Assembly (NCBI GenBank): GCA_054600435.1
Contig: BAAIJX010000053.1
Location: 1-64,000 of the forward strand
From: Neophaeotheca triangularis
Taxonomy: Eukaryota
Length of the DNA: 64,000 nucleotides
Direction of reading: 5' to 3'
Made by a program: the position numbers and the translations under genes. Of the stretch, positions 856 through 48,444 are shown piece by piece. The number at the start of each line of letters is the position of its first letter. Positions within the stretch are counted from its first letter, which is position 1. The notes under the pieces are model-generated. The model had not been told where the DNA came from and ran no database searches. It saw only the letters and a program-made list of their open reading frames with translations.

Positions 856-3800
856 TCAAAATAACCCCATACCCCTCAACTCCCTAACAGGCTTCCCGGG
901 TCTCTCGGGTCTAGCCATCGCCGGCGGATGGGGTCCAGACGGTACTTGCGGGACTTGCGATTTTGGGATCCGCTCTGGGGAGAAAGTGGCGCTCGGAGGA
1001 GGCGGCGGGGAGTAGAAGTCGCGACGTCGGATAGCTGGGGCCTCCCGCGAGGATAGGGGAAGCGGAGTACGAGGCGAGTGCGGAGGGGCCAGGCGAGGAG
1101 TTGCTGGCGGCGTCGAGCGGACTAGAAGCAATGGTTTGGAGCGGGCTTTGTGGACGATTTTGTGGGCGTCGTCTTCGGCATGTGTTGGGGTTGGTGCCGT
1201 TTTGAGACTGGATTTTGAGCGCGCTTTGCGGACGACTTGTTGAAGGATGCCACGTGAAGGTTCGACGGCCGCGGGAACTGGTTTCGACCGAGGTTTCTGT
1301 GCCGCTGGGAGCAATGGCTCGTGTTTGGTTCGGTCTGCTGCGGACCGTCCGTCTTTGAGAAAAGCTTGCGATGGTCTTTGCTGCATGGGCTTGGGTGGTG
1401 CTTCCCTCAGCACGCTGTGCTGCGCTTCCGCCCTCATGTTCCAGTGCGATCGAGCTTTACGTAAGCCGGTCGATGTCCCAGGCAAAGGCAGTCTCCCGTG
1501 TGGTACAACTTCGCTAGCAGCCGGTCTGGATCGGGGGATCTGCACGTCCTTCGGCGGCACTTCTGGCCTGTCGTCCGGCGTTTTGGTCTTCAGCGTTGAC
1601 AGCGAACGGACCTGGCGCACGCCTTTCCAACGGTCGCACGTCGTCGCACTCTCGCTCGGGGTTCGGTCGTCAAGATTCCCTTTCGACTGAACCTTGAAAA
1701 CGGGCTTCGCTGGCAGTTTCGGCGGCACATCGGGTTTTCTCTCGCGCTCAGCATCCCCACCGATCGATATGGAACGAATCTCGCGCACGACCATTGGAGG
1801 CGGCATATCTATCGGCGTATCTCTCGCGACTGGTTCTCTTGACTTGGGCAAGGATTTCGACCTCGCTCTTCGCAAGGGATGATGAGGGTCCTCGGTAACC
1901 GTACTCTCCTTTTTCAGACTCTGTTTCGAACGGACTTTGCGCACGACCGTTCCGAGGCCGGTCTCGTGAGTCTTGGTAGCCACGTCCTGGGTCGTTTTAT
2001 CCCCTAGTGTCGATTTCGAGCGCACTTTGCGGATAATCCCCGGCAAAGGATTCGATGTCGCTCTCGACCTTGCTCTTTCACTTGGTCTGGTAGGGACGTT
2101 AGTACTTTGTCAGTCGAATCGCATCAACTTCCGCAAGCAAGGCCGTCTCGAATCGAATAATTTCAAAAGCCAGCAGCTCGTCAGAGCCAGTATAGCGGTC
2201 TGAAAGACTTTGCAAAGCTCACCCTCCAGGACTGATGACGACTCTCGCGCCCTCCTTGCCCAACACACCCCTCTCCCTCGGTTTCGCTTTTGGACTCCTG
2301 TCCCTCCCCTTTTTCCTGCCTAGAAATCCTAGCATCCCCGTAGGTTTCTCGTTGACGTTACGCTCTCCCTCGACCATGCTGGCGCTCTGGTTTGCCATGC
2401 CACTCCAGCTTCCTTGCTCGTTCAGAACAACTTGAACGCCGCCTCCCATGCTAGTGCTACGATGAGAGCCTCGGGGTCGGTGTTGACGAGGGGCGGATGT
2501 TGAAGGCGGCGGGAGGTTAGTGTTGGTTTCATCGTAGCGGATCGAGCGGACTTGATGCGGCTGCGCGGTGCCTGGAGTAGGGGTTTGAGACGGTAAGGGC
2601 GGAATTTCCTTTTCCGCAGTGGAGCCCGAAAAGTATTCGCGTTCTGGGGGTGATGAAGAGGGCGGTGCTGCATGGGTTGTTGTAAGCATTGGTGATGGAT
2701 ATGGTGGAGAGCCATTGGGAGATTGTGTCGACAAACGTGTTCTTGATGCGCTGCCTGGTGTTTGCGAGCGAGGCGTAGGTATTGATCGTGGATGATCTGG
2801 CGCTCTGCGAGCTCTGTGAGGCTCTATTGGAACCTCTTGTTCGCTCTTTGTATGTTTTTTGGCTGGAGTCGATTTAGTCTGCCCAGCGGAAGACCCAGCA
2901 GCCGCTGCGTCCGTCAAGGGGGCTCGTTCAACCGGCATCTGCGTGTAGTTGAAAGGCTCAAACATCGTTTCGATCATCCGGTGTAACTCGTCTGCGCGTA
3001 TCTCCTGCGCAGTCGCATCGTCTCTGAGCTCAGCCCTCGGCTTCTGTTTTCGAGCGCGCGCTTCCAAAGGAGCCTCCTCCAATAGCAACTCTTCTAGATC
3101 GTACGTCGCATCAAAGTTGGTCTTGTCACTCGACGGACAGAAGACGGGCTCAACCTCTTTGCGTTCCAGCGCCTCAAAATCAATCTCTCGGAAGAATGGG
3201 TTGTCTGTAAAGGATTCGAAACTCGCAGCCCCGATTCGCAACGTCTTGTCCTTTTCTAAAAGCGAGCTGATGGCGTGCAAACAGACCATTGACACAGGTG
3301 GCGATGTTATCGGGTACGCCGGGTCAGCCTTCATGATTGTATTCGCCAGAGCTTCCGAATTGTTCGCTTCGAATGGCCGCTTGTTGTAAATGCATTCGTA
3401 AAACAAAACACCCAACGACCACCAATCCACCTCGCTAGCATATCCCTTGCCGGCGTATACTTCCGGCGCAAGGTATGCCAAGGTTCCAGACTTGCTACTC
3501 AACAGCTTCCCTGGTGTGAAGTCCGAGGCTACGTTGAAATCCGCCAAATGCACGTGTCCTTCCGAATCCAGGAGTACATTGTCGGGCTTCACATCGCGGT
3601 GGACGATGCCTTGTTTGTGGATATGCCGTAACGCGCAGGCCAATTCGGCGATCCAGAACCGCACAGCGTCTTCGGTGAAGGTCTTTCGTGAGATGTGGAA
3701 ACGCAAGTCTCCGCCGTTCATCAGGTCCACGACAATGTATCTGCAAGCCTGGAGTCAGCAAGTCCGCTTTACCCTTTTGCTCCAGACCTCACATGGGTGT

Positions 3801-7323: not shown

Positions 7324-8135
7324 TCAGACTTGTTCCATAGTTCCCGCCGGCTGTTCGTCGTCGTCGTCCGAGTCAATGCTGCCGACGCTGCTCATCTCGT
7401 CGCTGTCGTCGGATTTGTCGTCCATGTTGTCATTGGCCTCTTTGGAAGCGTATTTCGCTACGTACTCTGGGGTGCCGGGTGTCAGGGACGGTTGTAGGAG
7501 GAGCGTTCTCTTCGTGATGTCGCGGACCCACCTTTGACTTTCGCGTCGTATGCCTTCTGCTCTCTCATCAACAATGCGGCCGCTTCGCCGTTTAGTGGAT
7601 CTGTCGGGTTTGGGTATCGGAGTAATTGAGGGAGGAAGACTTCGAAAATGTTCACCATCTCGTACATGGGCGACCATGTCTGGTTGATGACATCGAGACA
7701 GACGCTGCCGGATCTGCGTGCAGACAAAAGAGTCAGCATATTAGTTGGGTCAGGTTGGGAGTAATGCGCACAACTCATCTATATTTGGATGGAAGATGCG
7801 GTTGACGAAGCCGATGCTCGGAGACTTGTGAGGGTACTGGTCTGGGAGCTCGACGTGGATTTTCCAGAGACCGCCTTGGAAGGGTGCTGGCTTTGGTTGT
7901 TAGTATCTAGCTGAGCTTGTGGCGTCAGCGGCAATCACTGACTTTCTTCCGGCCCCTTGAAGCGGACGTAGAATTCTTGCATGTTGTCGTTGACTAGCGT
8001 AACTTCGTAGTCGCTCATGAGCATCTTCATGACCTACAGTATCCCGTTATCAGCCACCGTTGTCGACTTGGAGCCAATCGTCCTCTTCTTGTGTAGACTC
8101 ACATCAGTCTCGATGCGGCGCTTTGGGCTACTCAT
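7324..8135 (-). CDS. UBC8: Ubiquitin-conjugating enzyme E2 (Ubc8/UBE2H), 5 exons: 8135-8103, 8033-7943, 7886-7772, 7713-7532, 7466-7324; 187 aa
   Basis: Spliced product reads [22 protein letters not shown]...[22 protein letters not shown]... with the catalytic Cys and an acidic tail. Four GT-AG introns are all in phase. Confidence 0.95.
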
Positions 8136-24423: not shown

Positions 24424-24658
24424 AGAAATTGCTTTGGACTGCTTACTAACAGACTTTCATAGTTGAGCCAGTCGACAGCGAGTACTCCGGGGCCACTGAG
24501 CAGGCTCGACTTGGTGTTCGTCGCTATGCTCGCCTGGTCGTTAATGTGATGCGTCGCGCCCGCCGCAACGCTCGCATTGGGAACTAGACGAAGAGCAGGA
24601 TGGAGCTTGAGAAAAGCTGAGTACGGAGGCACGAATGACGATGGAGTTTTGGTGAGGA

Positions 24659-26519
24659 TCAGGTTTTGTCGAGCTCATGAAAGCGCATATGAGCATGCAT
24701 CGCGAAGGAGGGTACGGACATTCCGCAGATGTGGCATCCACCAGTATCGGGAAACTCTCCGGAGTCGTCCCAACCGGCGTCTTCTTCGCCCTCCTCCTCT
24801 TGGAAGGTTTCGTGACCGGTACTAGTGTCTTCGCCGTCCCTTTCCTCTTCTCCTTTTTCGAAATTACTCACGATCGGTTCGTTATCAGTGACTCTAAAGT
24901 CCTTCAGCACCTTGTCCTGCCTCTTGAACATGCTACCAATGTCCCTCCCATTAGCCGTCTTGCTTTCCCCTGCTGTCTCTGCCATGTTTGTGACAGCCAA
25001 ATTGACAAGACTCAAGTTCCAGCCAGCCTTCTCAGGGTGTAGCTTTCGAAACATGCCGACGAGCGCTTCATCAACTAGCTTTTCGGCCAGCGCATCAACG
25101 CCCTCCGAAAGACCGAATACGAACATGGGCAATGAGGCGGAATGCGAGATACGTTTGAATGATCGAACACGAGTTCCATCCGGCTGTAGTGGCTGTCGAG
25201 GACGAGTCGTGAGACGCAGGGTCTTTGGGTGAGCAAGCCACTTCTGTCCGGGTTGTGACAAATCCTGTTCCATAGCATCATTACTGGACCCATTCTGATC
25301 CTCTTCATCTTCCTCTAGTAAGTCCGCCCTCATTCTTATGATCAAACTTCTGGCCAGAATATTGAGTTCCTTGAGTACTTCCAGCATGGTATCGAGTCTG
25401 ATGTAACTGTCCTCGATGCTGATTTGCCTGGGTACCGGCCTCGCTTGGCCTACTTCGGTATCGTCCACAGCATTGAGTAGACACCAGATCTTGTATCCGA
25501 TCCCATGGGGCGATCCAGGTCCGGCCAACAGCTTCTCGAGCATTTCATGATCCACGTTCGGATGCTTGCGTAAGTCTGCCACAGTGATGCGTTCTTTCGT
25601 GCCTCCGTATACTAAGCCCGTGTCAAACTCGGCGTGACGCTGTAGTGCAAACTCTCGTAGCTTCTGAGCAAGCTTGAAGCCAATACCGGGGACCTTGCCG
25701 ATCTCATGACTGTCCATAAAATTCTGAGCATAGTCCGAATCGTCGAGCTTGGGAGACATGAGCGTTGTCTGGCCTTTGGGCTTGTTGAGATTGCCCACTA
25801 GCTTAGAGAGCACCTTTGAAGTGGCTATGCCGACGGTAGAAGTATAGCCCATTCGCTGCTCGAGCTGATGTCGTATATACAATGCGAGGTGACCGCCCAA
25901 GCGCAGCCGAATAGCCTCTGGGTCTGCCAGAGTCGTTGAGTCTGACGTATACTCTTTCGGATAGGGATGCCCAGCGATGGCCGAGGCATCAAAAGAAAAG
26001 CCTTGAGTCGGGTCGTCCTTTACAGTTTGAAAGAAAGCGTTTTCCAGGTCGTTGTGGTTGAGCACTTCGACATTGTAGTTTACCATATCCGAAACATCTA
26101 GCCATACCTACCTCGTACATCAGCACTTACTCTGTACCACTCGCTGTCCCTCCGTCCGTCTCCTTATCCGGACATACCTCATCGAACCCCAACCTCTCAA
26201 CCTTTCCACTCCAGCTGAACCCGGCTAAGAACCGATACAACTCTTTACTGGCATCTCTGAACCGACTGATATCCTCTCCCAGTTCAATGATTACGTCCGG
26301 ACAGACTCGCTTTGCTTCCCGTACCAATTGCAGCTTGTGTAGACCCCGTCTCCTTGCCTCATAGTTGCAGGTCACGATGATCTGTTTCTGTTGCACAGCA
26401 AACGGAAGGGATTTGAGGGCTGGGTTCTTGGCTTCAAAGACGGAAGCGTAGAAGCAGTCGTAATCGAAGTGTATGATAGTGCGATGAGTCTTGCGTTTCG
26501 GAAGAGTGTCGAGACTCAT
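24659..26519 (-). CDS. Y-family translesion DNA polymerase, Pol iota-like; exons 26519-26178, 26107-24659
   Basis: IIHFDYDCFYASV, VTCNYEARRRG, RLGFDEVWLDV (DE catalytic motif at intron 26108-26177), STVGIATSKVLSKLVG..KPKGQ, HhH VPGIG, and C-terminal CHICG..HAHMRFH (UBZ-like). Confidence 0.9.
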
Positions 26520-26640
26520 ACTGACTACATCTTACGACTTTCAGCTCTGTTTACCCAAGATCGATATCAATGCCAATGCATTCGCGTACGAGCTACGAAG
26601 ATGGGATGAAGTCGAGTTTCGGCGCTAGACCCGAAGCGGG

Positions 26641-26668
26641 TGCCTTTTGGCTTAGATCAAGTGCAGCA
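26641..26668 (+). other. U2 snRNA-like segment (stem I plus branch-point recognition region, with GUAGUA changed to GCAGCA); antisense to U2 on the minus strand
   Basis: TGCCTTTTGGCTTAGATCAAGTG is identical to fungal U2 nt ~12-34 as recalled, followed by CAGCA instead of TAGTA. No stem IIa or Sm site follows. Confidence 0.75.
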
Positions 26669-27301
26669 AACAGCCCGGCACTAGCGTCGTATGCTGTCGG
26701 CGAATGAAAGCATCCAAGGTTATATCACAAGTACGTGAAAGGGGCAAATTGGTCAAAATCAACGGCAAAATGTTAAAAACCAAATATGTTCATTAAAAGC
26801 TGCGACGTTCTCGACTCGTTCCTTTCGCATCGTGGCTAATACAGCACGTTCTGACATGTATACACAAGCTCCGCGATAGGAAGTCTCACAGCGCAAGGCA
26901 TGCCTTGAATGAGCGGTGTCGAGTATGGTGCCCGTAGTCAAATGGTTGCGTTGATGGCTCTCACATCTCTGCCACTTCGTTCAACGAAGTAGCGGACCCC
27001 TGCCCTTGTGCCTGAAAATGGTGCGTTTCATAACCCGTGCGGTTCATTTGCGGCGATGTCTGAATGTTCGCTGTCATCTCCGGTGGGAAGCGGTGGCGGC
27101 GAACACCTCTTTGCAGGCTTGGGCTTGGTCCCGAAATCCACTCGCATTACTTTCGTACAATTGTCACAATGCCACCACCAGCGTTGCGGGGTTAAACGGC
27201 GTCTAGACATTGCGTGCTCAACATCGTACCATGTGCGGTTTTCCACGCGAGGCTCTCCAGTATGCGGCGTGCACTCTGAGGTGGCTCTGCATCCCTCGTT
27301 T

Positions 27302-27829
27302 TCACCCTTCTTTCCTGATGACGCCAGCAGCAGATCGATCGCCTTCATCTCCGGCAGCTAGCTTCAGATCCCGCTCATCTTGTGTGCTTTGCGCGGCAGC
27401 TGCTCCTTCTCCATCAGCACCTTCTTCCTTCTGAGCAGCCGCCTGCCTATGTCTCCTAGGTGAATACTTCCCAGGCCCCCAAATCGCCTCCCTAATCCCC
27501 CAAGCAAAGCCCGCACGATCAACTTCTCGTCCCGCCTCTTTGATGTCGTCGAAAATTGCAGTACTGATCTGCGAGTCCTGCTGTTGCTGTCGTTTCGCCT
27601 TCTCCTCCTCGTTGATATGTTGGTTCGCGAATTCGGGGCTACGACCTGCGCGAGCTTCTGCCTCCTCTTTAAGCGCTGGTTGGAAGGCTGCGAAGGCTGG
27701 GAGGCGACAAAAATGAAGAGTATTAGCTGTGGTGGTCTCGCGAGCTATAATGGGGAGTGGATGCCTACCCGTTGCAATACCCGCGGCTGTTGCGAGTGCT
27801 ATGCCTCCCAGAGGACCGTAACGTGACAT
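27302..27829 (-). CDS. Small protein with an N-terminal hydrophobic anchor; probable in-frame intron 27697-27768
   Basis: MSRYGPLGGIALATAAGIAT|AFAAFQPALKEE after removing a 72-nt GTAGGC..GCTAAT..CAG intron; divergent from the GatC-like gene. Confidence 0.65.
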   Translation of the reverse strand: MSRYGPLGGIALATAAGIATGRHPLPIIARETTTANTLHFCRLPAFAAFQPALKEEAEARAGRSPEFANQHINEEEKAKRQQQQDSQISTAIFDDIKEAGREVDRAGFAWGIREAIWGPGKYSPRRHRQAAAQKEEGADGEGAAAAQSTQDERDLKLAAGDEGDRSAAGVIRKEG

Positions 27830-28045
27830 GAGCTGCTTGAGTGATTACTTAATTGGTACAGGGCTCTCTTGTACATTCGAATGACTGGCCACCTAGGTGC
27901 TATTTTGTGTCTGTTCTGTGTTCTCGATATGGTGATGTCGTTCACATGTGAGACCGTGCACAAAGCTTGCCGAATCCGAGAGCTTTGAAGCTTCACCTCA
28001 CGTCCAAGTCGGGAAGGGACATCGACTACAATAATCGAGACGAAT

Positions 28046-28636
28046 ATGTACGGACGAACACTCCAAAGGGTGGCCGTCGGTGCACAACGACAACTGTTGC
28101 TCAATGGCTGGACACGAAATTGCGCTACTTCAACAACAGCAACGACACAATCATCGGAGCCAAAGATTGATCCTGAAGCCTTGCTCTCCCGGCAAACGTG
28201 GTCCGTAGCCTCATTAATCCCCTCAGCCACGATGAACGATTCTACGCAGACCCAAGAAGTTACGCCAAAGCAACTCCATCACTTACTTCGCCTTTCCGCT
28301 CTTCCTCCCCCGAGCTCCGAACAAGAAGAGCAACAAATGCTCGCGACGCTCTCCTCGCAACTGCATTTCGTTAGAAGCATACAGGAAGTCGATACGACCG
28401 ATGTGCAGCCTTTGCGGAGCTTACGAGATGAAACGAAGCAGGGAGAGCGCGAGACGGAGCTGGGGCTTGATGCACTGAGGGAGGCTTTGGGCAAGGAAGA
28501 GGTCCGGGGAAAGTATCACAAGCGAATTAGAAGAATAAGAGGTAGCAACGGGGAGCATGAGCAGTGGGATGTGCTCGGTGGGGCGGAGAAGAAAGTAGGG
28601 AGATCCTTCGTCGTAGATGGGGGCAAGACGAAGTGA
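28046..28636 (+). CDS. Mitochondrial glutamyl-tRNA(Gln) amidotransferase small subunit (GatC/GatF-like)
   Basis: Presequence-like N-terminus; QLHHLLRLSALPPP and QLHFVRSIQEVDTTDVQPLRSLRDE resemble the GatC family. Confidence 0.75.
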   Translation: MYGRTLQRVAVGAQRQLLLNGWTRNCATSTTATTQSSEPKIDPEALLSRQTWSVASLIPSATMNDSTQTQEVTPKQLHHLLRLSALPPPSSEQEEQQMLATLSSQLHFVRSIQEVDTTDVQPLRSLRDETKQGERETELGLDALREALGKEEVRGKYHKRIRRIRGSNGEHEQWDVLGGAEKKVGRSFVVDGGKTK

Positions 28637-30225
28637 AGCTATGGGCAGGCTCTGCAGTCCATGGGAAGGGCATGCAGTGCAGTCGTCTTTTGATGAAGCT
28701 GCAGACTTGGACTGCCCAGAACCCAGGGCGCTGAGCTTCCAAGTCCGGAAAGCTCCACACGCATGGCGCAGTAGCCTGACACTTGCAAGCCACCGTTGTT
28801 TGGATCGCCTACCTACTATCAGGAAGCACGTCTTTGGTAATCTGTCGGCACGGCCGCCTTTCTTTCACTTGACGACTGTATCTGAATTATCAATTGAGAC
28901 GCATGAACTGCAGACCCCAGAAAAGGCACTTTTCAGCCTTGATCAACGATTATAGCGCCCCTTATCAACCCGACAGGTCTTAGTCTGAGGCCAGTCCATT
29001 CGTGACACTGATGAACCTCCAAGACTTTCCTCCTCGCGGCTCAGACTTGCGCCCGATCAGCCTTCTTGCCTCCTGGCTTTGGAGTTGCGAAAGCCGTGGG
29101 TGTGCGGTTGGACTTGGCCATTTCTTGATCTGGTGGAAACTCGACCTGCAGCCCCGGACCACCGTTGTGGCTCTACGTTCGTTCCCTCACGCACGTCCCC
29201 AACACTCCCCCGCTGTCAGTGACACTGCATGCGCAATCACGGTGTACCTGACCGCCGCAGAAGATTGAAAACCGCCGAGCCTTCAACGGCAACCATTTCG
29301 GCAGAGGATCTCAAAGGAAACTTGAGCGTATGTGATCGTTTTTCACGATGTCGTTGCAAGGCGCACTTAGACGTTGTAAGAGACGGTATTAGGGTTGCGC
29401 AACAGCATTGGTAGCCAACAACACTTGCCTAGGGTCCTGCTTCAAGGAAGGCTGCTCGCTCGGCTCGCGTGCCCACCGGCCTGCGAGCGTCATACGCTAC
29501 GGCTCCTGTATGTTTCTCAGAGACAGAAGGCTAGGCTTCTTGGCTTGTATCGACGCCGGGAGCATACTGGCTCTGGAGAGATGCCTTCGCCGCACTGCTC
29601 TCGGTGACCAAGGCCAGTCCCACTATGACTGTAGAGGTGCCTACGTGGCAAGGGACGGCAGTAGCGGGAAGGATGCCTCTTGTGACGCAACATGGGCGAA
29701 GCTATGAATGGGGCCGCGAATCTTGGAGATTGTAGCTGAGGATTAGCCTGCTTTCCCCAGTCTCCGAACGACGCACAGAGTTTCTTGTCGACTTTGAATG
29801 TTACTTCAATCTTCCAGAGCAAACAGAGCCAGGAACTGGTGCACCAAAATAATGTGGCTGCGCTGGCACAGCAGTCGAATAGAGAATAGAGATCGATAGC
29901 AATGCTTGTGCGGTTTCAATAGTACGGTCATTTTCAACCTAGAAACCGCTCTGCTGGAGATGGGCCAACGCAAGCCGCTGGAGCAATTCGGAAGAGCTCA
30001 AGATCCGCGCCCATTCGAAGCCAGGTGTTTCGCTCGGGAAGCGTCCCTGATTGGCAAGGAATATGGTAGCATTGCGCAACGTTGTCTTCAGAATGATTTT
30101 GGCACTGGCGACGACCAGAACACAGCCGAGCTACAGAGTCCAGTGTAGGGAGACGTGATATAAGGTTTGGAAGAGATACTCGCTGGCTTTGATATCTGAA
30201 GGGAAGTCGTCAAGAATGGCTCGAT

Positions 30226-45902: not shown

Positions 45903-48444
45903 CTATGCTATCAGACGTAAGTCTCCTTCCTCCGGCAAGGCTCCGACCGCCTCGCAGAGGTCTCTGATGTCGCGAACATCGTCACCTTGCCTCAACGGCC
46001 AAACAATCTTCGAAAGCTTCTCCTCCAAGTTGACGAACTGCTCTAATCCGACGGGAACGAAATAGTGACACCCTGAGCGCTCAAGGCCTGACCTTCCACT
46101 GTATGGGGCGTTGCTCCTTCCCTTCTTCCTCCACAGATCCCGGCCATATCTCATGACTTCGGCCACTCCGCCACTGGCTATCACCAGGTCTGTGACGACG
46201 TCGCACAACAACGCCATGGCTTTTCCCTCGTCGCTGGGGTATAGTTCGTGCCACTGCTCACTCTTTGGCTTGCGCCAATGGCCAGGAGTCACAGGTATCC
46301 ATTCCACTCTCGAAAGACACTGCAACTCGGTGTCCTCCTTTTCGGGTAGCAAATTTCGTTTCTTCCGAAAGACAGTCAGGGCCTGCCAGCGTCTCACGAA
46401 CGACTTTGAGGCATTTACAAGGGCGGTGTCCGGATGCGCCAGGGCGGGTTCGATAGCTGTGCCCAAGGCTAGGTCGAGCGTGAGGCTAACCTTGGGTACA
46501 CCACAAGCATCGTAACGCATGACGTCGTCGAGCAGAAAGTAAGCGTTCAACGCGATGGTTTTCCAATGTGCGAGAAGTGCGGCAACGTCGTCGTGGGGAG
46601 GTGGGTCCGCGACGACGTGGACGTGGAGGAAGCGACGGACGTGCTGCTCATGTCGAAAGGCATCGCGCAGCTCCACACGGCCATCTAGATGATTTTCCCA
46701 GGTCACTTTGACGCCGTTGACGTACACCCGAAACGGCTTTCTGCTGTGGAGCTCGAGGAGAAGCGTAGAATATTTCCGAAAGACGTAGAGTGCTTCATTG
46801 CGCACGTCGTACGAGCTCTTGTGCATATCATACAAGAGGCGATTTGACACGCTCGGATGCGGCATGAAGTCGTTGCTTGCCAAAGCGTGCCGGAGGACCC
46901 TGCTGCGAAGCTCCCAAGGCAACTTCATCAACGGGAGTGCACCTGGTACCTTTGCAGCGCAATGGATCTGCATCATGCGATTTCTTTCGCTGAGGAGCCC
47001 TATAGCAAGGTCAGCGGACGTTGTCAGGTGTTAACGAGACATGGACTCATACATGCAATGGAAGTGTTCCGATCATTCTGCTCGACCGGGTCCTTGCGCA
47101 GTTCCAAACCAGCGTCATCTTGATCACAGAACAAGGGCGTATCCCATGCTTACCATGTCAGCATGCTTGGCTCTACTTGGTAAATAGACAAGCCTCACTC
47201 ACGTCCTACCCACAATGGGCAAGCAGGGAATCCGCACTTTGTGCGGTGAGCCCCGAACGTAAAATGATAGCAGACTCGTTCAATGCTGGGCAAGCACAAC
47301 GGGCCGGATGCCTGAAGGAGTTCACGCAGGAATTGCTATTCTTGCTCATTAGTATTCGGAAGATTGCGGCCCAATTCTGGAAAGAACATACTGAATAGCG
47401 CACAATGCGACGCCACTTGTGGTAGTCTGCAGGCATTAGATTGTCATCCATTCGGGAGAGTTCTTCGTTATTGCCGACTTCAAAACCATATCGTCGCGCC
47501 ATTGGGCCGCAGTTTTCGCACTTATCGACATGGTCACTTAGCTCGCATGATGCATCTCCCCCGTCGCGATTGAGCCTGCCATTGTATTCTTGCGGGTTGT
47601 CTTGCTCGGAAAGGGTAGGCGATTCCAGCACAGGCCCTTCTATTGCAGACGAAGTGTGAAGGTTACGTGGCGTTGGACCTGGTTTTGCCCTGTCACTTGA
47701 ATAGTCATTTCCGGTATTCAATTCTGCGTCCTCTCCGGCTTTGTCTTCGTGGCAAAATTCCTCGTCGTCGTTATCCAGAATATTTGTGGGGGCCTCCAAG
47801 TCCTTGGTCGTTTTGTTGTCGTCATCAAGTATGAGGTCGCAAGCTGTGGTAGCCAAAGTATCATCGTCAAATGCACGGTTGGTTCCGATAGACCGCGTTT
47901 CCAGAGATATCGCTTCATCGATCCTCGCCGCGCTTTTCAGGGGCTCAAGAGATTCGTGAAGCAGGTCACAGGGTGAGCGGTCGTCCACTGCAACGGTCGA
48001 TACTTCCTCTTTGCGCACTGATAATCCACGCATTGAGAAACTTCGGTGCCATCGTTTGTCGGTTTTGGAAGGCCTTCTTGGAAGTTTGCAAGGGCTTGGT
48101 GCTGTTCTTGTTTGCCGCCATCGACACTGATCGTCGTGCTTGCGATTCGGTCGGCGCGTACCAGTTCCCCAGATGTCCGCATCGTTCTTAGTGAAGCTAC
48201 CCTTTTCGTCCATGAATTCATTGGCGGTGCTGGAGATAGACATAGACCGCACATGACTAAGTTCCTTTGGCCTTTCCCGCGCGCTCAATGTATCCGGACG
48301 AGCTCTGCCTCGCGCAATAATGTCTTTCCATCTGTTCAGCGTGTCGGACAATTTCCAAGCGCCTTTCAAAATACGCCATGTGCGCGAGTCCACAGACCGC
48401 TCATCGTTTGTCGGACACGGCCGGCCTGGAGTGGTGACGCCCAT
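45903..48444 (-). CDS. Hypothetical 792-aa protein with an internal F-box-like motif; exons 48444-47392, 47335-47203, 47148-47053, 46999-45903
   Basis: Three short canonical introns (56, 54, 53 nt; GTATGT/GTGAGT/GTATGA donors, TACTAAT/GCTGAC branches) join two long ORFs in frame. LMKLPWELRSRVLRHAL resembles the fungal F-box/2EXR-like LPxELR motif. Confidence 0.65.

Follow-up and report, generated by a model that had tools for sequence, protein, structure and literature searches.

The U2 small nuclear RNA (snRNA) of Saccharomyces cerevisiae is available as nt 1-47 in the Methods of a preprint (10.1101/2024.08.29.610268), and a yeast U2 northern probe listed in Table 2 of PMC4466884 is the complement of nt 15-37. 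Several described systems involve pieces or partners of this RNA. Afu-191, a guide RNA listed in Table 1 of PMC2377427, is predicted to direct Am32 of U2 in A. fumigatus; an orthogonal human U2 was used in the work reported in PMC13019295; and pairing of U2 outside a branch point is described for an IgM splicing inhibitor (PMC3964906). Another class of system concerns the origin of short out-of-place sequences. As described in PMC5110952, the fillers found at repaired breaks in human cells and yeast include short reverse-transcribed RNA patches and mitochondrial DNA. Here we analyzed a U2-like stretch in fungal DNA and compared it with these systems.

The window, that is, the whole 64,000-base stretch of DNA that was analyzed, has a G+C content of about 48-59%, a composition typical of a filamentous-fungus genome. 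On its plus strand, positions 26641..26668 hold a U2 snRNA-derived 28-mer that corresponds to yeast U2 nt 12-39 and reads GCAGCA instead of GUAGUA. The first-pass annotation had quoted this 28-mer and had set it beside fungal U2 over about nt 12-39. The 28-mer was present exactly as given, and the stated identity held: in a comparison based on the Rfam consensus and two printed yeast sequences, 26 of the 28 bases matched S. cerevisiae U2 nt 12-39 as printed. The regions covered are stem-loop I, the U6-pairing region, and the branch-recognition hexamer. Both mismatches are T>C changes at nt 35 and nt 38, within the hexamer (26664 and 26667 in window coordinates); the printed yeast U2 and the Rfam U2 model (RF00004) agreed with the earlier statement that these are the sole two differences. 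The yeast northern probe sequence given in PMC4466884 differs from the minus strand of the window by one base.

The 28-mer is unique in the window. With up to three mismatches allowed, it was the single match in 64 kb, and none of 100 shuffled sequences contained any. For the given 28-mer at up to two mismatches, the number of matches expected by chance is 6e-9 per window and 4e-6 per 40-Mb genome. Because the expectation per window is so small, chance resemblance is unlikely. Judged by this sequence comparison, the descent of the 28-mer from U2 can be regarded as established. A search with the 28-mer as a pattern, its two C residues widened to Y, found no stretch in either viral_contigs or genome_contigs.

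Two minus-strand genes flank the element. The first encodes a Y-family DNA polymerase, iota-like, whose first coding exon (26127..26519, minus strand) is an open reading frame (ORF) matching PF00817 IMS with an E value of 3.7e-25; 26127 is the limit of the ORF, not a mapped splice site. The closest solved relatives of this exon were structures of DNA polymerase iota (E 9e-29, versus 2.5e-14 for polymerase kappa). The second coding part, given by its ORF limits as 24659..26107 on the minus strand, showed weak IMS and IMS_HHH matches, both below the Pfam cut-offs, and in tblastn was 48-67% identical, across about 480 aa, to the collected polymerase loci described below. The polymerase ATG is at 26519-26517 of the minus strand, and the element stands 122-149 nt upstream of it, antisense to the gene. 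The spacing of about 120 nt that had been annotated previously was confirmed as 122 nt, counted from 26641.

On the minus strand, motif matches mark a candidate promoter of the polymerase gene: CCAAT at 26752-26748 and TATAA at 26724-26720. Because these motifs are situated 52-84 nt upstream of the element, the element could fall near the start of the leader. Three very short candidate upstream open reading frames (uORFs) were also seen on the polymerase strand between the TATAA and the ATG. They encode MLSFADSIRR (26713-26681), MHWH (26581-26567), and a single M (26530-26525), each followed by a stop codon. The latter two lie between the element and the ATG, which suggests that the transcription start may lie further downstream. 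We also considered whether the element might act as an extended branch site for an intron in the 5'-UTR, and rejected this by eye: the complement of U2 lacks a bulged A, and GTACTT, the candidate 5' site, is poor.

The upstream neighbor, at 27302-27844 on the minus strand, is a 180-aa ORF that gave no Pfam match. Near-identical contigs from a marine metatranscriptome (X5) covered 26957-27447, namely its 3' end and the sequence downstream, which hints that this ORF is part of a transcribed gene. Next to it, a GatF/Gta3 gene (Gta3/GatF/GatC, a subunit of the mitochondrial Glu-tRNA(Gln) amidotransferase) occupies 27989-28636 on the plus strand and matched PF20978 with an E value of 4e-23. Its ORF had identical RNA contigs in another marine metatranscriptome (X3), at 28107-28425 and 28540-28700.

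Scoring with the Rfam model was carried out on stretches of different lengths. When the sequence was cut to 26640-26669, which lets Infernal regard both ends of the match as truncated, the alignment spanned model positions 10-39 out of 192 over 30 nt and scored 18.6 bits, with an E value of 0.0092 that is valid for the 30-nt search alone. The sequence of stem-loop I and the U6-pairing region was present, as model positions 12-33 matched, including the GCC/GGC stem with its UUUU loop. The two hexamer U residues were the only mismatches at capital-letter consensus positions: the model has an invariant GUAGUA, and the window has GCAGCA. Inclusion of the downstream sequence (26640-26860, 221 nt) lowered the U2 score from 18.6 to 11.7 bits, and past about model position 37 nothing in this stretch aligned; neither score reached the gathering score of 46 bits. 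The whole 64,000-base window yielded no match to RF00004 at the gathering score, and stretches of 601 and 58 bases yielded no U2 match at E values up to 10. The Rfam model named in the first-pass annotation thus gave a weak match on the trimmed 30 nt and none on the 58, 601, or 64,000 bases. By itself, a score of 18.6 bits would lack significance in a search of 64 kb; significance comes from the identity count.

The likeness to U2 has sharp ends. Compared by eye with the printed yeast U2, the flanks of the 28-mer agree at 1 of 7 bases on the left and 1 of 8 on the right. A decayed full-length copy is disfavored because the identity is 93% in one piece and none lies beside it. The 5' end of U2 is missing from the element as well. 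Downstream of the hexamer, no stem IIa/IIb and no 3' stem-loops aligned within 26640-26860, and neither ATTTTTG nor ATTTTG, the Sm-like motifs sought, occurs in 26600-27000. The model alignment and the motif search thus bear out what had been read by eye, that stem IIa, the Sm site, and the U2 3' domain are absent. Neither poly(A) nor an evident target-site duplication accompanies the element, whose location is non-coding DNA.

Folding of 26600-26720 gave a z score of -0.40 for the plus strand, with 66 of 200 shuffles folding at least as well, and of +0.04 for the minus strand, with 101 of 200 doing so. A hairpin closed by GTGCC (26640-26644) and GGCAC (26677-26681) had been suggested for this segment. 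Its two arms do exist, but the minimum-energy fold does not pair them and the stability is no better than that of shuffles, and the hairpin was rejected.

Seven public runs were found, one of which, X1, may be the source of the window; to assess variation between strains, the contigs of X2, X7, X3, and X5 were compared with 24600-28700. X2 carries the same organism label as the window, shares 0.53 of the sampled words, and covers all 30 bins. Over the intergenic region (26514-27440), its contig and the window disagree at 32 of 927 bases (3.5%), compared with 4 of 527 for the contig of exon 1 and 19 of 1325 for that of exon 2; the listing of differences appears complete up to 27140. Two of the differences listed fall within the 28 bases of the element, T>A at 26646 (U2 nt 17, in the stem I loop) and A>G at 26656 (nt 27, in the U6-pairing stretch), and none of those listed falls on the two C residues at 26664 and 26667. 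At both 26646 and 26656 it is the window that has the U2-like allele, so the X2 lineage has moved away from U2. A count of two in 28 bases agrees with the intergenic rate (P = 0.25 for at least two) and not with the exon-1 rate of 4 in 527 (P = 0.019). Based on one related strain and two substitutions, the 28-mer looks like a sequence drifting neutrally at the local rate.

Other observations were made in the same runs. X2 lacks 5, 3, 1, and 1 bases at four nearby sites in 27840-27866, between the 180-aa ORF and GatF/Gta3; this stretch looks indel-prone and is probably a shared promoter region. At 25895-26014, within the polymerase coding sequence, X2 has two contigs of 120 nt with depths of 48 and 52, compared with about 100 elsewhere, and each has 3 differences from the window. 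The pair appears to represent two alleles, or else two strains present in the sample. X7, which has the same organism label and is more distant, contributed two coding pieces only (69 and 56 nt, below 90% likeness). The two metatranscriptomes contained small shares of the 4.1-kb stretch, as contigs at 26957-27447 (X5) and 28107-28700 (X3) together with some short poor matches, and no contig overlaps the element; the contigs derive from mixed communities and are uninformative on transcription of the element.

Distant orthologous loci were collected by a metagenome scan with the exon-1 protein, in which 276 stretches matched the pattern, 135 encoded a relative, and the best 80 were kept. These best 80 of 135 loci have 47-90% identity and total 333,217 bases. 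Conservation of the 28-mer upstream of related polymerase genes, which had been put forward as a check, was not found: none of the 80 loci contained it on either strand at up to seven mismatches, and the upstream regions there could not be aligned. The nearest sequences came from four loci, three of them with 8 mismatches and the fourth with 9. Any 16-mer of the element at up to two mismatches occurred four times in the 80 loci, about the number we estimate for chance, and three of these four matches were the same 16-base site (L053, L056, and L058), within or just past the matched exon-1 stretch. When the upstream sequence 26520-27300 was compared with the 80 loci, blastn gave 19 pieces, the longest of 27 nt and the best with an E value of 0.005, and neither of the two upstream neighbor genes had a tblastn match in these loci. 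The 80 loci cannot reveal an empty site, because their upstream regions are too distant to align. As far as the compared sequences go, this survey shows that the element does not belong to the ancient parts of this gene's control region.

We consider the best explanation, with a probability of roughly 0.65, to be that the 28-mer is a short dead fragment of U2, captured as filler at the joining of a break, drifting like the non-coding DNA nearby and doing nothing specific. The source would be either a piece of U2 gene DNA or reverse-transcribed U2 RNA, and this piece would have served as filler when a chromosome break was joined. After its capture, the fragment would have drifted at the rate of the surrounding non-coding DNA, with no specific function. 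The mechanism of capture and the lack of function are what we infer; the derivation from U2, the sharp ends, the missing parts, the substitutions between strains, and the absence from distant loci are observed. Three readings had been offered in the first-pass annotation, and they fared differently. The captured U2 fragment fits, with its 26/28 identity, sharp ends, missing parts, and drift in X2, whereas the U2-mimic RNA and the antisense decoy found no support.

The neutral relic does not explain why both older changes are at the T residues of the hexamer. For two random substitutions, the probability that the two T>C changes, which both strains carry, hit exactly the hexamer's two T residues is 0.0026, and the probability that both fall anywhere in the hexamer is 0.04; both values are post hoc. 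It is possible that one substitution was followed by slippage between the two GTA units, that the two sites share a common G-T-A mutational context, or that G-U pairs are tolerated, as the antisense reading considered below would have it. At low odds, the U>C changes could be a footprint of reverse transcriptase (RT) at two modified uridines of mature U2, and the element would then be a fossil, in a fungus, of break repair templated by RNA. According to PMC5733568, the branch-recognition region of U2 carries many modifications in S. pombe and higher eukaryotes; pseudouridine, however, is described as RT-silent in PMC10164586, which counts against a pseudouridine footprint.

It had also been proposed that the hexamer was re-specified toward a variant branch site. 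The base-pairing logic was correct, as GCAGCA is a perfect partner of UGCUG(A)C, and TGCTGAC is indeed present at the three minus-strand positions named for it (3754-3760, 7732-7738, and 47157-47163). Over the whole window, the motif occurs 11 times where 11.4 would be expected, and 11 copies or more were present in 53 of 100 shuffles. Ordinary U2 pairs with the TGCTGAC variant through G-U wobbles. Since the motif is unenriched and ordinary U2 can wobble-pair with it, there is no need for a re-specified U2.

The nearest rival to the captured fragment is a leftover of a U2 gene or pseudogene that was formerly complete and lost its other parts by deletion. Such a remnant would likewise be a dead U2-derived piece, and fungi can have more than one U2 locus, U2-1 and U2-2 of A. 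fumigatus being listed in Table 3 of PMC2377427. This history, however, needs two precise deletions, one on each side of a middle that stayed at 93% identity, and there is no trace of other U2 parts within 26640-26860. We regard it as unlikely, though as the least unlikely of the competing accounts.

Distinctly less probable is an antisense U2-binding element, in which the polymerase leader would bind U2 snRNA or the U2 snRNP and either affect the fate of the mRNA or locally titrate U2. In its favor, the minus strand offers a 28-nt complement to U2, in which the two older T>C changes would retain the pairing as G-U wobbles. The element could be in the leader, as the minus-strand TATAA is 52 nt upstream of it and the ATG 122 nt downstream, and the IgM splicing inhibitor sets a precedent for U2 pairing at non-branch sites (PMC3964906). 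Both X2 substitutions, however, would give mismatches with U2 on the minus strand (U-U and C-A), and they arose at a rate no lower than that of the neighboring DNA; the element is absent from all 80 orthologous loci. The X2 substitutions and this absence speak against the antisense decoy as first proposed. A leader containing the element would also have two mini-uORFs (MHWH and M) before the ATG, and the transcript may start further downstream. In the U2 snRNP, moreover, the nt 12-39 region is folded and protein-bound. A fuller version would have the polymerase iota-like mRNA start upstream of 26668 and bear the 28-nt U2 complement close to its 5' end, with selection for pairing admitting, in this strain, no changes other than those that preserve pairing as G-U, and with the leader capturing the U2 snRNP, thereby tying expression of a translesion polymerase to the availability of the spliceosome; we give this version equally little credence. 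If the minus strand were a transcribed, U2-binding leader of a translesion polymerase, it would represent a new kind of link between an mRNA and an snRNA. The data obtained here do not lead in that direction.

A third account, very improbable, takes the minus strand as a degenerate or unusual box C/D guide RNA for 2'-O-methylation of U2, related to Afu_191/snoU2-30. Positions 26650-26670 of the minus strand match the 3' guide and box D region of RF01499 (Afu_191, 10.4 bits) and RF00493 (snoU2-30, 13.6 bits). The gathering score is 60, which neither match comes near. Where box D (CUGA) would stand, the sequence is CUAA, one base away, and by eye there is neither a box C nor a terminal stem. The complementarity to U2 also extends 14 nt beyond the end of box D, which an origin from a guide does not predict. 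The resemblance arises because all of these sequences are antisense to U2 around a methylated A. Given the low scores, CUAA at box D, the missing box C and terminal stem, and the over-long complement, this candidate was rejected.

Chance resemblance, without descent from U2, is just as improbable. In its favor, 18.6 bits is not significant for a 64-kb search and very many windows and motifs were examined; against it stands the expectation at up to two mismatches given above, for the window and for a 40-Mb genome alike. The weakest account, a U2-mimic small RNA whose plus-strand transcript presents GCAGCA to UGCUGAC branch sites, can point to the perfect pairing and to the occurrence of the motif in the window, including the three named places, but is scarcely credible given the missing U2 5' end, stem IIa/IIb, Sm site, and 3' domain, longer stretches that give no U2 match, a fold no better or more stable than shuffles, a motif that is unenriched and wobble-pairs with ordinary U2, the little promoter room left by a divergent polymerase ATG only 122 nt upstream on the other strand, and X2 substitutions in the stem-I loop and the U6-pairing region.

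Read as a captured fragment, the element matters little in itself. It would illustrate, on a small scale and in the natural DNA of a filamentous fungus, how a segment of an abundant nuclear RNA, or of the gene for it, can become non-coding filler, and it could serve as a marker for dating the divergence of strains. It adds a further case to a known class of sequence debris.

Compared with known systems, the element is closest in sequence to U2 snRNA itself (RF00004), with 26 of 28 bases equal to yeast nt 12-39; it differs in comprising only about 15% of the molecule and in having C at two U positions of the invariant hexamer. Like the box C/D guides of U2 (RF01499 and RF00493), its minus strand has the same U2-antisense core; unlike them, it has no C or D boxes, scores 10-14 bits versus 60, and has a 28-nt antisense stretch that runs through the position of box D. 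In engineered orthogonal or suppressor U2, a changed hexamer re-specifies branch-site pairing, the logic behind the first-pass proposal; the engineered RNAs, as in PMC13019295, are full-length and assemble into snRNPs, whereas the element is a 28-nt piece. The closest parallel in kind is with templated sequence insertions (class 2 TSIs) and the capture of mitochondrial DNA in yeast as described in PMC5110952. Those insertions were shown experimentally or as presence/absence polymorphisms in human and yeast, whereas here we infer the mechanism; strain X2 carries the element, and the 80 distant loci are without it but have unalignable upstream regions. In common with the described insertions, the element is a short patch in a non-coding site, with no poly(A), and a copy of sequence from elsewhere (26/28) with sharp junctions (flanks 1/7 and 1/8).
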